Part shown: positions 41,701 to 58,979 of the stretch, in pieces
Layout of the letters: each line of letters opens with the position of its first letter
How positions within the stretch are numbered: the stretch's first letter is position 1
From: Lingula anatina
Taxonomy: Eukaryota > Animalia > Brachiopoda
DNA: 64,000 nucleotides
Direction: 5' to 3'
Assembly (NCBI GenBank): GCA_051362555.1
Contig: CM120643.1
Span: forward strand, 10,726,001-10,790,000
Made by a program: the position numbers and the translations under genes
The notes under the pieces: generated by a model
Told to the model about the DNA's origin: nothing
Database searches by the model: none
What the model saw: only the letters and a program-made list of their open reading frames with translations

Positions 41701-43836
41701 TCCATTGGTGAAGGACGAGTGAGCAGGTGTACCACGTGACTGCCCTAATTTAACAAATCAATGCAGTGGATGATGGGAAGAAAAAACTTTTTAGCACATA
41801 AGAGGGATAAAAAGCAGCAGAAAGTACGACACAAAACTTCCACGAATAAAATTAGAATTTTAACAGAGAGGGCAATGGTATGTCGACAGTAAATAAGACT
41901 TTTAAAGTTCGAAGACCTTGCACTGAGACAACATCGAATAATGCAATGGCCACACTGGTTAGGAAGCCCTAATAGTATTAGTAGTAAAAGGTGTGTGCAC
42001 AGTGAATGAAATGTGCGCACGCAAACCGTTTTCGAAGACAGCAGAGCGTAAAACTGAACGTGAAGAACGAACAAAAAACGAAGTCCAAATCGCTGGATTG
42101 TCCGTGCTGTCTTTAGAGACTACAGATCTCTTAGCCAGAAAAATAAATGTAGAGAATCTGAGATCAGTCAGTCTGTAGTTGATCTCTGGAAAACATATCA
42201 CTGACGTTGTGTTACCTGCTGGAGAGGAAACTCGGACCAAGTGTCCCCTGTGATACATCATCCTATAGCACTCAATTTTTTTTCCCTCTAAAACCCCAGC
42301 CTGACATTATGTCTGACATTAAAAATCTCTTATCAGACATTTTTTGATCACGTCACACATTTGAAAGGCATGTAATTTTTCAGGTTTTAATAATATAGAC
42401 CAGTCCAATAACAAAAGAAGCAGAAAAGAGTGCCTACACCAGGTCCACTGTGAAACAGAGCCCTCATTTTTCAGCATGTCACAGAGAGAGAGAGAGAGAG
42501 AGAGAGAGAGAGAGAGAGAGAGAGAGAGAGAGAACGATGCCACTGTGTCTGCACTACCGACACTTGTTCACCCCATACCTGTCTAAACTGGCCTGAACCG
42601 GTTCAGCAGTGGTAGGCTTAACGTGTAGTAGTGGAGAATTCACATTGGTGTCATTTTTTTACTACACGTTTGACATGTTTGGGAGAATCTGATTCAGAGT
42701 CCAAGTGCAGATATTCTTTTTGAGTTCAAAGCAATCAAGTAAATTCCAGTAGACTATGCATTTGCTTTCAATTAATAAAAAACTGCATGAACAACATATT
42801 AAACCCCAGAATTGCGCAAGAAGGCTAGAAAATGCTCGTTAGGGCAAGACTTACAAGTATCAATGCATGACCTATCTTTCGCGCTGAAGATCTTCAATCA
42901 GTGGTAAAAAGCATGTACAACTGGGCGAGGACTAAGTATTTTAAATGCTCTGTCATCCGACAGTACGGACATTGTGACTGACATGCTGACGTTGCATGTT
43001 GGACATTTTCAATTCATGATGGACATGTCCTGCAGTCTGAGTTTTTTAGGAATACTGAAACGCTATCATTGTTGTAAACACTATTGTAAACTGTGCTTAA
43101 CACAGTGGTAAACAAGAAAAAATAAAAAGCATGTGAATAAATTGGAGCGTTTCATGTTGATTATTCCAACTTTTTGTTCCCAATAGCACTTTAAAATTAT
43201 ATATTGTCAATGATAAAAATAACCTTTTTTTGTTACATATCACATAATTCATACATCAGTTATTGTCATTTGATAATAAACAATAATTATCCTCAAAATC
43301 TCTTTAGGAAGTGACCATTCCATATGCCAATACTTACACAAGCATGCAGCAGCCAAGAGCCGTGTGGGGATTTCTGGATTCGGACAATGAGGAAAAAAAG
43401 GCTGGATCATGTAGTTAGCAAAAGTCAGTGCTATGATAGCATTACTGGTCGGTGTAATTATAACTAGTAATACCCACAAGAAGAGAAACCCTACAAAATT
43501 CCCAAAAGAATGACGGATATATGCGTAGTCCGCGCCTGAGATTAGAATAAATGTTCCAAGTTCAGTATAACACATGGCTCCAACCAGGGAGACCACACCG
43601 CATGCCGCCCATAACATGAGGGATGCTCCCACCGAACCTGAGTATTGAAGAACGCCTTTTGGGGAGACAAAAATGCCGCTTCCAACGATCGTCCCAACTA
43701 TAATAGCGACTCCTTGTAGAAGTCCCATTTCTTTTTTCAGTGTCACTGCATCTGTCCTTCCTGAGGAGTCCGTATTCGTGTTAGAATTCATGGGTTCTTT
43801 TTCAGCTGGTGTTCCTTCGTTTTCGGCCATTGTCAT
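23780..43836 (-). CDS. SLC7 heteromeric amino acid transporter light chain (LAT2/y+LAT-like, SLC7A5-11 family), 500 aa, using proximal exon 1a
   Basis: Exons (minus): 43836-43338, 40205-40080, 39752-39653, 38386-38342, 27386-27263, 26918-26815, 26259-26163, 25816-25667, 24903-24726, 23859-23780. They total 1503 nt, are all GT-AG and in phase. Motifs: [28 protein letters not shown] (heavy-chain disulfide Cys), [30 protein letters not shown]. Confidence 0.96.
25410..25610. mobile_element. MITE family A, diverged copy
   Basis: Shares the motif order GGGGT..CGCTAAAT.GCT.TCAG, AGTTAATT.ACC, CAGCTT and TCCCC.CGG.GATAG.TCGATC with 12497-12678. Confidence 0.55.
28087..28295. mobile_element. MITE family A, copy 2
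   Basis: TTCCCACAGAT...ATCTGTGGGAA inverted ends; reverse-complement similarity to 12497-12678. Confidence 0.75.
29056..29281. repeat. 113-bp near-perfect tandem duplication
   Basis: AGTTTATTTTCCAAYAGAGAGTATCCC...GGTCTGAA begins at 29056 and again at 29169. Confidence 0.9.
29305..31106. mobile_element. Helentron-associated non-autonomous element (HINE/DINE-1/pearl-like) with internal tandem arrays
   Basis: Starts AACAAG. Sub-terminal ATGTACAGAC lies at 29327-29336. It contains internal tandem repeats of about 340, 190 and 158 bp and a (GAC/GGC)n microsatellite at about 31010-31060. It ends in the palindrome TATGTACAGACACA-TC-TGTGTCTGTACATA (31073-31102) followed by an A run. Confidence 0.75.
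31152..31250. repeat. Compound (GT)n(GA)n microsatellite
   Basis: Direct reading; further (GA)n tracts at about 32968-33029, 33967-34003 and 42483-42532. Confidence 0.95.
32239..32515. repeat. 143-bp tandem duplication
   Basis: TAGTCCCCATTGGATTGAA at 32260 and 32403, with matching downstream sequence through GATACATGCTAAT. Confidence 0.9.
38889..39058 (+). mobile_element. MITE family B (CAGGCCCRTAGCCAG termini), copy 1
   Basis: TIR CAGGCC.RTAGCCAG; flanked by ATAAA/ATAAA. Confidence 0.85.
40319..40485 (+). mobile_element. MITE family B, copy 2
   Basis: Same TIR and body as copy 1; flanked by ATATA/ATATA. Confidence 0.85.
41213..42252. mobile_element. About 1-kb insertion with imperfect CAYAG-initial TIRs (Transib/Chapaev-like termini)
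   Basis: Absent from the paralogous site near 52185. Left end CATAGTGGTGATTTCACGGCCAAATTTC; right end (reverse complement) CACAGGGGACACTTGGTCCGAGTTTC. No clean TSD. Confidence 0.55.
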
Positions 43837-44969
43837 GTTATGTTGGTTTCAGTCTCTGTTGAGCACGTTTCCCTTGGTGTTTTTTCGTGAATGATAAAAT
43901 GATCCCTTCGAAGTCAGTCCTATTTGGATCGTTTCTTCGGATAATACCAAATGTGTCCTGTGTTCTTGACGAATGTATTTATGACAAAATATGTTATATT
44001 CCTCGATCCACACGCTTGCGCTCCAGCTCTAGTATTCTATCTCGGGAAATGTGCGCCAACAATCACTATTCTTTTGTAAATGGAGTACGGTTTGGCTTAC
44101 TTCCTCCACACAGCGCGAAACGGCAACGAGTTCACGAAGGTGGAGCTGAATAAGTTCATTAACTTTTTTCCTTTAATATTATAAAAGTCAATCAGAAGAA
44201 GTTTATGATGGAAAACAAACTTACAGATTCTAAACTCCACAAAACTCTCTGGAGAACTGGCATATTCATACCATGTATGTATATCTATAAAAGCATACTA
44301 GGTATTTTAAAAATTATTTGTATTGAAATTAAGATATTTAAAAAGTGGAAGTCTACTTATGCACATTTTCTATGTTATGTCGTCCCTCGTTTCGATCTCA
44401 CGCTCAGGTATCCTATCTTAGACTTTCCCGCCAAATCGAATATTCTCCTTATTATCGAATCATATCGCTCGATCTACACGTCACTCGATGTTTTTTATCA
44501 TTTCCAATTAAATAATTTAGTTCTGAGTGAAAGGTCAGTCACTTAAACAGTCATGTCTTCCTGTACAGTCAATATGAATACCAACATGACGTATTTTTCT
44601 TTGAGGTGTTATATTCCCGCATCGTAATGCCCTGCACCCCCCCCCCCCCCCAACACACACACACACACACACACACACACACACACACACACACGACTGG
44701 AAGATAGGCCGATGCAAAGTATAAAACAATATTTAATTTCAAAACCTTGCTGTAAATAAAAAGTCAAGTGACATTATGTTGTAATCGTACGTCGTTCAAA
44801 AATCGCCGAGGGGGAGCATCGGTGCGGGGGAGTAACGATGCGAGGCCGTACACAAAGAGATACTCCTTTAAAACTATGACTTTCGGTCTAATAAAAAAAC
44901 GGATATTGTCCCGTTGAAAATCACAAAACACTGAGAAGAAATTACTGGCACTTTCCTTACACGTGCAAG

Positions 44970-57330: not shown

Positions 57331-58480
57331 GGTTTAAGTTGCGATTATATGTGACCTAAATCCAAGAGATGGGAACACAGGTCTTTAATTGCAGTCTAGG
57401 AGGAGAAGAGGTAACGGTGACTTGTATCCCAAGCCATCCTGTTGAGCGGGCGGAGCCAGCAGATCCGTACGAGACGGGTCGGGACTAAAACCATGAGTAC
57501 TGCCATCGTACACCCTGACTGTACTTATTATTGAAAATATAGTTTCATTACTGAAATAAAAGATCAACAATTATTTACAAAAGTCAGCAGACCTTCACTT
57601 GCTTCTGTATTGGAAAAAATGACTTCAGAATATGGCTGACATTGAGTGGAAGAGGGGCAACAACACACTTCAACAACTGGCAAAAATGTTGCCAGAATAA
57701 GTTTTGATGAAAATTGGTAGGTTTATTCTGTGTATTAAAAGTCGTCTTCTACCCACTGGAAGAAAGTGTACACCCTCTCTGATAGGAGGTATCTCAAAAT
57801 GAAACGGTGTTGCTACATATAAAAATTGGCATGTTGGCCAATTTTGTCGAGTTGTATCTCATTCATTTCACCTTAATGCTGGGAAAACCGCACACTTAGA
57901 GCTACAGGATACCCTCTGCTATCATGTCTTATTTTTTCACTAGGCTTTTATGCAAAGAATAAAGCACAATTCATGAATTTTCATGAAAATCACAAAACTT
58001 AGAATTTTTTATCACAACTTCATCTCAGTGCACACAACGTATTCTGAATATCTTCCTGCGCACTGCCAGTTGCCATATGACTGAAACAAGCATGTGAATA
58101 TTGCGTCTGATTCTTTGTATCAGACTCGTCATTTTACTTGACAACACCAAATGTTTGAAGGTAGTTTTATTACGATAATTTCTTGAAGGCATCAATTTCT
58201 TAAAGTGCGAGGCTATGGGCATGATTGGAAAAACAGCTAAAAAACAAGTACTTTCAGTTTTTGTCAATTTCTTGAAGGCGTCGATTTCTAGAAAGGCAAG
58301 TCTATGCTTAACACTGTGGTAAATGACAAAAAAAAAAATATTTAAATGGGGGTGTTACATGTTGATCATTCAATCTGTTACATATCACATCATTTATATA
58401 TTTTATATATCAGTTACTGATAACAAATGTAATCTTCAAAATGTCTTTCGGAAAGGACTGTTCCATACACCAATACTTAC

Positions 58481-58979
58481 TCAAACATGCAGCAGCCAAG
58501 AGTCGTTTGGGGAGTTCTGGGTTCGGACAGTGTGGATAGAAAGGCTGGATCACGTAGTTAGCGAACGTCAGTGCTATGATGGTGTTAGTGGTCGGAAATA
58601 CGGTAATTAGCATTACCCACAAGAAGAGAAACCCTACAAAATCCCCATAAGAATGGCGGATATATGCGTAGTCCGCGCCTGAGATTACAATAAACGTTCC
58701 CAGTTCAGCGTAACACATGGCTCCCACCAAAGAGATCAAACCGCACGCCGCCCATAACACGAGGGACGCTCCCACCGAACCCGCGTACTGCAGTACACCT
58801 TTTGGGGAGACAAAAATGCCGCTTCCAACGATCGTCCCAACTATTATAGCGACTCCTTGGAGGAGTCCCATTTCTTTTTTCATTTGCAATGGATCTGTTC
58901 CTCCTGAGGAATCCGTATTCGAGTTGCAATTCATGGGCTCTTTTTCATCTCGTGTTCCTTCGTTTTCTGCCATTGTCAT
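58481..58979 (-). CDS. Duplicated SLC7 first coding exon (exon 1b), intact; probable alternative first exon
   Basis: Same length as exon 1a (499 nt), same phase-1 gtaagt donor, no indels or stops, 28 differences in 166 aa. I found no second set of exons 2-10 between it and exon 1a. Confidence 0.88.

Follow-up and report, generated by a model that had tools for sequence, protein, structure and literature searches.

Two tandem first coding exons ahead of one set of constant exons in a LAT-type SLC7 transporter gene of the brachiopod Lingula anatina

The window considered here is a stretch of 64,000 nucleotides from Lingula anatina (GenBank assembly GCA_051362555.1, contig CM120643.1, positions 10,726,001 to 10,790,000 of the forward strand; coordinates below count from its first letter), and it holds, on the minus strand, a gene for a LAT-type light chain of the SLC7 amino-acid transporters with two homologous first coding exons, named 1a (proximal) and 1b (distal), and a single set of constant exons 2–10. 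The initial annotation had described two intact first coding exons of 499 nt with identical phase-1 donors and no indels, and the sequence confirms this in full: both run from ATG to donor over 499 nt, with zero insertions or deletions between them, and both are followed by GTAAGTATTGG, a GTAAGT donor in phase 1. They differ at 67 nucleotides (432/499 identical) and at 28 amino acids in 166 codons, and with their collinear duplicated flanks they form a pair of tandem homologous exons within one gene; the pairing is real and far beyond chance. Exon 1b encodes residues 1–166 plus one base, that is, the N-terminal tail, transmembrane helices (TM) 1–3, a loop with Cys151 and the first half of TM4. 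The first exons and their leaders are the following.

43836–43338, minus strand: exon 1a, the proximal first coding exon, the ancestral-like copy; start of XP_013409620.1 and of the partial model XP_013401299.1
58979–58481, minus strand: exon 1b, the distal first coding exon, the faster-changing copy; start of XP_013409619.1, covered by RNA reads in 7/7 runs
58980–59280, minus strand: 1b leader, transcribed and unbroken into the coding part, with a putative promoter and start near 59230–59280
43837–44137, minus strand: putative 1a leader and promoter region, placed solely by alignment to the 1b leader

The two leaders align with 18% substitutions and seven gap openings, and no upstream ATG occurs in the 1b leader (59300–58980). 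Between the coding exons, the Nei–Gojobori method (NG86) gives a non-synonymous distance (dN) of 0.088 and a synonymous distance (dS) of 0.352, a ratio of 0.25 (bootstrap 0.14–0.43; Fisher p 1.6e-7), well below the value of 1 against which the initial annotation had wished to see it checked. Its view that both exons are under purifying selection stands in this respect, but constraint is unequal between the copies. By region, the ratio is 0.11 for codons 34–110, 0.31 for codons 111–166 and 0.50 for the N-terminal tail. The codons for the stretch GVLQ differ between 1a and 1b at synonymous third positions, just as they had been written out at the outset.

All nine constant exons have canonical AG/GT ends, and either first exon opens a reading frame of 500 residues when joined to them.

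40080–40205, minus strand: constant exon 2, its start matched by loose read ends from the 1b donor
39653–39752, minus strand: constant exon 3, from splice ends and RefSeq-identical protein
38342–38386, minus strand: constant exon 4, on the same grounds (splice ends, RefSeq-identical protein), as are all those below
27263–27386, minus strand: constant exon 5
26815–26918, minus strand: constant exon 6
26163–26259, minus strand: constant exon 7
25667–25816, minus strand: constant exon 8
24726–24903, minus strand: constant exon 9
23780–23859, minus strand: constant exon 10, coding part to the stop

That exons 2–10 exist only once, as first reported, agrees with searches by tblastn, blastn and local alignment, which found no second copy in the 64-kb window; the single shared set is thus established at the scale of the window. 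No collinear remnant of exons 2–10 was found in the distal intron, and a marginal exon-2-like match (score 36) was rejected, as 4 of 300 shuffles reach that score and its position is non-collinear. On sequence grounds, an origin by duplication of the whole gene followed by deletion is unsupported. The variable exons in the window number two, the RefSeq cluster likewise lists isoforms X1 and X2 only, and the locus is accordingly a pair, not a many-exon array. Intron 4 (27387–38341), at 11 kb, is by far the longest among the constant exons, and searches revealed no further copy of exon 4 or 5 inside it.

The product is assigned to the LAT-type light chains by its Pfam domain (AA_permease_2) and by comparison with sequences in the PDB; it shows the APC fold and the GSG motif in TM1, and the AlphaFold model (mean pLDDT 87) superimposes on LAT2 and Asc-1 with a TM-score of 0.88. 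In this model the exon 1 part comprises helices 39–66, 69–96 and 113–147 and half of 155–175. In both isoforms Cys151, in the TM3–TM4 loop, aligns with Cys154 of LAT2, a position that we take to be the cysteine linking to the heavy chain by a disulfide. Asn243 aligns with Asn249 of LAT2, where the y+LAT subtype has an acidic TM6 residue (Asp243 in y+LAT1). Asp at this position marks y+LAT carriers (PMC7653941, PMC11922002), so that the name given in the database, 'Y+L amino acid transporter 2', lacks support. Letter for letter, the 1a isoform is XP_013409620.1 (X2) and the 1b isoform XP_013409619.1 (X1), so the two-isoform structure is already annotated in RefSeq for L. anatina. A third, partial model, XP_013401299.1 on a 24-kb contig, consists of 1a plus exons 2–6 and agrees at 316/317 residues; it is most likely the other haplotype, and the draft genome has a reported heterozygosity of 1.6% (PMC4595640). 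No further Lingula protein appeared among the best 120 matches of a full-length search.

Raw RNA runs deposited under the L. anatina label (7 of 9 used, 6–30% of each, without tissue labels) were mapped to the 1b side, over 57400–64000, which is crowded by dispersed repeats, and, for read ends at the donor, over 58250–59700 with an identity cut of 93%. Exon 1b was covered in all seven runs, and in stranded libraries on the minus strand only. From four runs, 222 reads were placed on 58250–59700, 45 of them fitting in part, and 42 of these 45 end at the 1b donor (7 in run X1, 6 in run X2, 4 in run X5 and 25 in run X8). The consensus of their loose ends matches, by eye, the start of exon 2 at 30/30 positions in run X2, 29/30 in runs X1 and X5 and 27/29 in run X8. 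The junction 58481->40205, which the initial annotation had named as a check, is in use, and the distal exon is spliced over 18 kb to exon 2. Agreement among the loose ends at this donor was 0.97–1.0, with no sign of splicing from 1b into 1a. As the reads of runs X1, X2 and X5 match the letters of the window throughout the coding exon, with no others present, they are derived from 1b.

On the 5' side, coverage continues unspliced upstream of the 1b ATG, fades by 59230–59280 and is zero by 59279; no loose read ends were found there in any of the four runs mapped to 58250–59700, and depth is zero over 59389–60272 in 4/4 runs mapped to 57400–64000, a span that includes an acceptor-like motif at 59960. 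At this depth, 1b is a first exon, and both its predicted transcription and its position in the transcript are borne out. Coverage of 1b sets in at about 59.25 kb, and at this low depth no exon spliced to it from further upstream was seen, which would fit a promoter of its own for 1b. Of the transcripts with one exon or the other, that with 1b is seen in reads and that with 1a is modelled in RefSeq. The suggestion that promoter choice selects between two N-terminal thirds holds insofar as reads make 1b a first exon and both isoforms are in RefSeq, but the two promoters themselves are inferred. Within the 1b leader (59043–59135), two reads of run X1 and six of run X2 skip 91 bases; the ends of the gap are non-canonical, and its cause is probably either a deletion in one allele or the mapping itself.

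Runs X7–X9 differ from the window at about 20 coding places (ca. 4%), fixed in all reads. Of the 67 places diagnostic for 1a versus 1b, 3 have the 1a letter in these runs and 2 a third letter, and the last base differs as well. The fixed differences suggest a diverged population or cryptic species, which also expresses an exon of 1b type; in it, synonymous and non-synonymous changes relative to the window number 10 each (ratio 0.34, p 0.015). Both first exons are thus intact and constrained, with ratios of 0.25 between the copies and 0.34 for 1b against the letters of run X8.

The duplication itself extends well beyond the exons. The initial annotation had given each exon a duplicated upstream region; this is present, but the unit is larger than stated and includes most of intron 1.

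51799–63558, no strand: distal copy of the duplicated unit, with upstream intergenic DNA, exon 1b, most of intron 1 and later insertions
40999–49960, no strand: proximal copy, collinear blocks matching the distal one
50631–51333, minus strand: decayed reverse-transcriptase-like fragment with open frames (RVT_1, E 2e-5, below the Pfam cut-off)
63679–63954, minus strand: possible last exon of the upstream neighbour, with open reading frame, acceptor, stop and poly(A) signals

The collinear blocks (63558–51799 against 49960–40999) are 72–89% identical; they take in all of the intergenic DNA upstream together with exon 1, and they reach into intron 1 up to about 790 bp short of the exon 2 acceptor. 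Alignable flanks differ by 13–21% with many gaps, in keeping with the earlier remark that the flanks have many indels and the exons none; for the duplicated upstream region the Jukes–Cantor (JC) distance is 0.14–0.25. The reverse-transcriptase-like fragment sits at the joint between the two copies. A dispersed element of 120–180 bp occurs four times (38880–39064, 40314–40491, 51919–52040, 53082–53260); one copy interrupts the distal duplicated intron block and was therefore inserted after the duplication. The distal intron further contains a tandem array (56143–56546) with a 142-bp unit in 2.8 copies. At the upstream end, the duplicated unit starts immediately beyond the poly(A) signals that follow the reading frame at 63954–63679, which has one predicted membrane stretch. 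The initial annotation had placed another gene's last exon near 63.7–64 kb; this is plausible from reading frame, acceptor, stop and poly(A) signals but unconfirmed, with a read depth of 0.1 in one of four runs and no convincing match in a Pfam search. On the downstream side, a neighbour at about 2850–11480 on the minus strand includes a DHHC palmitoyltransferase exon (11271–11477; Pfam E 2e-15) and a long open frame (2850–3473), and at 17087–18253 on the plus strand there is a lysine- and acid-rich open frame of 389 codons with no Pfam match.

The two proteins share 333 identical C-terminal residues and differ at 29 positions. Across TM3 the alignment to LAT2 is gap-free, residue n corresponding to LAT2 n+3, and 7 of the 20 differences in residues 34–167 fall within the 11 residues 123–133 (scan p 0.008 under a uniform null, 0.012 under one weighted by entropy, i.e. 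by family variability). Residue 131, Ser in 1a and Thr in 1b, corresponds to Asn134 of LAT2 and Ser144 of LAT1, and residue 127, Ile in 1a and Val in 1b, to Ile130 of LAT2 and Ile140 of LAT1; Thr126 of 1b occurs in 0 of 244 relatives. In human LAT2, Asn134 contacts the substrate and N134Q keeps about 15–20% activity (PMC7653941); in LAT1 the pocket face of TM3 is formed by Ile140, Ser144, Ile147 and Val148, and S144N abolishes leucine transport (PMC11828871). According to these two papers, Asn134/Ser144 matter for transport and selectivity in human LATs. Both isoforms have the same backbone-binding motif in TM1, the same Cys151 and the same TM6 residues, and both would therefore remain neutral amino-acid carriers. 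Against the nearest outgroup, P0006, the 29 sites carry the 1a residue in 15 cases, the 1b residue in 1 and another in 13 (p 0.0005). The 1a branch has a length of 0.007 and is almost ancestral, 1b carrying nearly all of the amino-acid change; by sequence comparison, 1a appears to have kept the ancestral sequence and 1b to have changed.

Related proteins were compared as gene models, not genomes (246 of 285 retrieved, those of 420–630 residues), and the clusters were chosen partly for carrying isoform names, so that no frequency is derivable. Forty pairs differ only in one or two exon-sized blocks, 12 of these 40 in the exon-1 block, and the 12 reduce to Lingula and two snail genes, A and B.

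Snail gene A: RefSeq isoform pairs in Biomphalaria, Physella, Pomacea and Littorina
Snail gene B: RefSeq isoform pairs in Biomphalaria and Physella

The six snail pairs (Biomphalaria XP_055892966/7 and XP_055896056/7, Physella XP_059156684/6 and XP_059159690/1, Littorina XP_070196382/92, Pomacea X2/X3) swap the same N-terminal block at the same boundary, and the constant parts are identical over 307/307 residues in 7/7 pairs. The tree built on exon 1 pairs 1a with 1b as sister sequences (100/99), and the variants of gene A and of gene B each cluster across species. The approximately unbiased (AU) test rejected trees in which Lingula 1b was grouped with one or the other snail variant, or in which the snail variants were grouped together (p-AU 7e-56, 2e-42 and 5e-5; the groups were named after the first tree), from which at least three independent duplications follow. 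With membrane-part identities between variants of 67–78%, against 85% in Lingula, the snail pairs are older. Position 131 is Ser/Thr in the gene B pairs of both species. Orphan exon-sized models share a contig with a full gene in Elysia crispata, where the locus tags are adjacent, and in Biomphalaria pfeifferi; they are closest to the gene A variant, and their sequences would fit a tandem first-exon layout. Tandem genes of Haliotis and Patella as two-gene precursors of the snail exon pairs were considered and rejected, because the 513-residue Haliotis protein belongs to a different paralogue and the two Patella genes are a whole-gene pair specific to their lineage. Among the best 120 matches there was no exon-sized protein above 79% identity to 1a, so that a second brachiopod with both exons did not come up.

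Other exon swaps also occur in LAT models (P0139-P0151, P0096/P0156, P0066/P0136, P0178/P0259, P0053/P0154, P0045/P0155), namely of the last exon (oysters, Lineus) and of blocks resembling exon 3 (Ostrea, Mizuhopecten), exon 8 (Mercenaria) and exon 2 (Dreissena). Stand-alone exon-1-sized models ending at the exon 1 boundary (P0290, P0321, P0295, P0367, P0369, P0354) are present in Limulus, Sinanodonta, Aplysia, Mactra and Ridgeia, and may be unannotated first exons or split models.

It can be proposed that a partial tandem duplication gave a LAT-type SLC7 gene two first coding exons, each likely with its own promoter; that 1b transcripts, in which splicing bridges 18 kb to the one common exon 2, would pass over 1a because the latter presumably has no acceptor in use; and that promoter choice is likely to yield two transporters predicted to differ modestly in substrate affinity or preference. 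As a whole we regard this explanation as probable, and the architecture taken by itself as highly probable. For different transport properties of the two isoforms the case is nearly balanced, leaning slightly towards doubt, and the likeliest functional outcome, if there is any, is a modest change of affinity or preference. Several observations tell against the proposal. Both pocket-facing changes (127 and 131) are conservative, Thr at 131 is common (32/244 relatives), the pocket positions 134 and 135 are identical in 1a and 1b, and the gene A pairs show no difference at 131 in any of four species. The asymmetry between 1a and 1b is weak against distant outgroups (e.g. 7 vs 5, 4 vs 4), and the faster change of 1b would fit relaxed constraint as well as selection. 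As for the transcripts, the one joining 1a to exon 2 is taken from annotation, i.e. from the RefSeq models; depth at the 1b 5' end is low (1–10), which leaves room for a rarely seen upstream exon; and the lack of 1a-type letters on 1b is uninformative, 1a reads being 87% alike against a cut of 93%.

The main rival holds that the duplicate was kept only for a second promoter, specific to tissue or stage, the protein differences being tolerated drift and both isoforms transporting alike. This is quite possible, if on the unlikely side: the whole upstream region is duplicated and diverged, most substitutions are conservative, constraint on 1b is weak, and TM1, TM6 and Cys151 are unchanged, but the clustering in TM3 exceeds both nulls, Thr126 is without parallel among the relatives compared, and runs X7–X9 keep the 1b residues at 126, 127, 128, 131 and 133, codon 131 having changed synonymously. 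It is improbable that 1a and 1b are mutually exclusive internal exons following a shared non-coding first exon under one promoter. The acceptor-like motifs conserved upstream of both copies (near 44750/59960 and 44146/59295) and the low 5' depth would suit such an arrangement; the absence of 5'-side loose ends, the zero depth across the 59960 motif and a leader continuous with the coding exon speak for the contrary.

Real use of a single first exon, with 1a silent or 1b decaying yet transcribed, would accord with the origin of the 1a support in RefSeq models instead of reads and with the concentration of amino-acid change on 1b; we consider it quite improbable, given that 1a is almost unchanged from its ancestral state and modelled twice in RefSeq, and that 1b is intact, spliced and shows dN/dS below 1 in two diverged read sets. 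An assembly artefact, that is, two haplotypes placed in tandem or two whole genes with collapsed constant exons, is very improbable. The heterozygosity of the draft assembly and the second, partial model might have hinted at it, but the exons differ by 13% and the flanks by as much or more, far above the allelic level, 1b reads enter the same exon 2 sequence that follows 1a, the second model contains no diverged constant set, and no further Lingula protein came up in the full-length search.

Returning to the proposal of two first exons chosen by their promoters, a broader idea is that the first exon of invertebrate LAT genes is an exchangeable specificity cassette, duplicated at least three times (Lingula, snail A, snail B), by which promoter choice retunes the TM3 wall of the pocket, with parallel Ser/Thr pairs at the LAT2 Asn134 position in Lingula and gene B. 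This idea is tentative, and we think it unlikely to hold in full; were it true, the Lingula pair would amount to a natural experiment, and a young one, in transporter specificity. LAT genes would, provided that the snail models hold, join ion channels in repeated exon duplication, with promoter and pocket duplicated together. The isoform pair in any case offers ready-made material for testing the influence of TM3 on LAT selectivity; unless a difference is measured, the gene counts as a well-supported, already annotated but ordinary case of alternative promoters.

The novelty implied by the initial annotation was overstated. N-terminal tandem exon duplication is a known class, with 39 human cases described by Martinez Gomez et al. 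(PMC8373072), in which, as in Lingula, homologous tandem exons serve as alternatives by way of alternative promoters and with mostly conservative differences; convergent origin and enrichment in membrane transport proteins have been described for tandem exon duplications (PMC9741552). These surveys, in the portions available, deal with human, fly and nematode genes; of the SLC7 genes, the main text of PMC8373072 names SLC7A2 alone, and the accessible text of PMC9741552 does not contain 'SLC7'. Compared with the cases surveyed there, the Lingula case concerns a brachiopod LAT light chain, is of recent origin and exchanges one third of the membrane core. A search of titles and beginnings of abstracts, with most subscription journals and the survey supplements outside it, found no literature on the Lingula gene or on duplicated LAT first exons.

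Within the SLC7 family, SLC7A2 also makes two isoforms, CAT-2A and CAT-2B, by way of a duplicated exon (PMC5803215, PMC8373072), and a few residues in that exon shift affinity ten-fold (PMC5803215). CAT-2 belongs to the CAT branch and chooses by splicing between mutually exclusive internal exons near TM8–9, whereas the Lingula gene belongs to the LAT branch and would choose between first exons by promoter. With the human LAT1, LAT2, y+LAT and Asc-1 light chains it shares about 47–55% identity, the fold, the GSG motif and the loop cysteine; unlike y+LAT it has no acidic TM6 residue (Asn243), and it carries Thr240 where LAT2 has Gly246. The snail LAT pairs exchange the same block at the same boundary with the remainder identical, but are older, of independent origin and known from gene models. 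Variable first exons on one constant set, bearing part of the substrate-recognising surface, are likewise found in UGT1, GCNT2 and the clustered protocadherins (PMC1885805, PMC3325998, as far as the available text goes). The Lingula locus differs from these in having two exons and not an array, in encoding a transporter instead of an enzyme or adhesion protein, and in the lack of homology, and there is no evidence in Lingula of stochastic CTCF-type choice. Unlike in UGT1 or the protocadherins, variable (TM1, TM3) and constant (TM6, TM8, TM10) helices together form its pocket. The gene class is thus known and the Lingula case already annotated, and it is the recurrence in other LAT genes together with the TM3 cluster that raises it above the routine.

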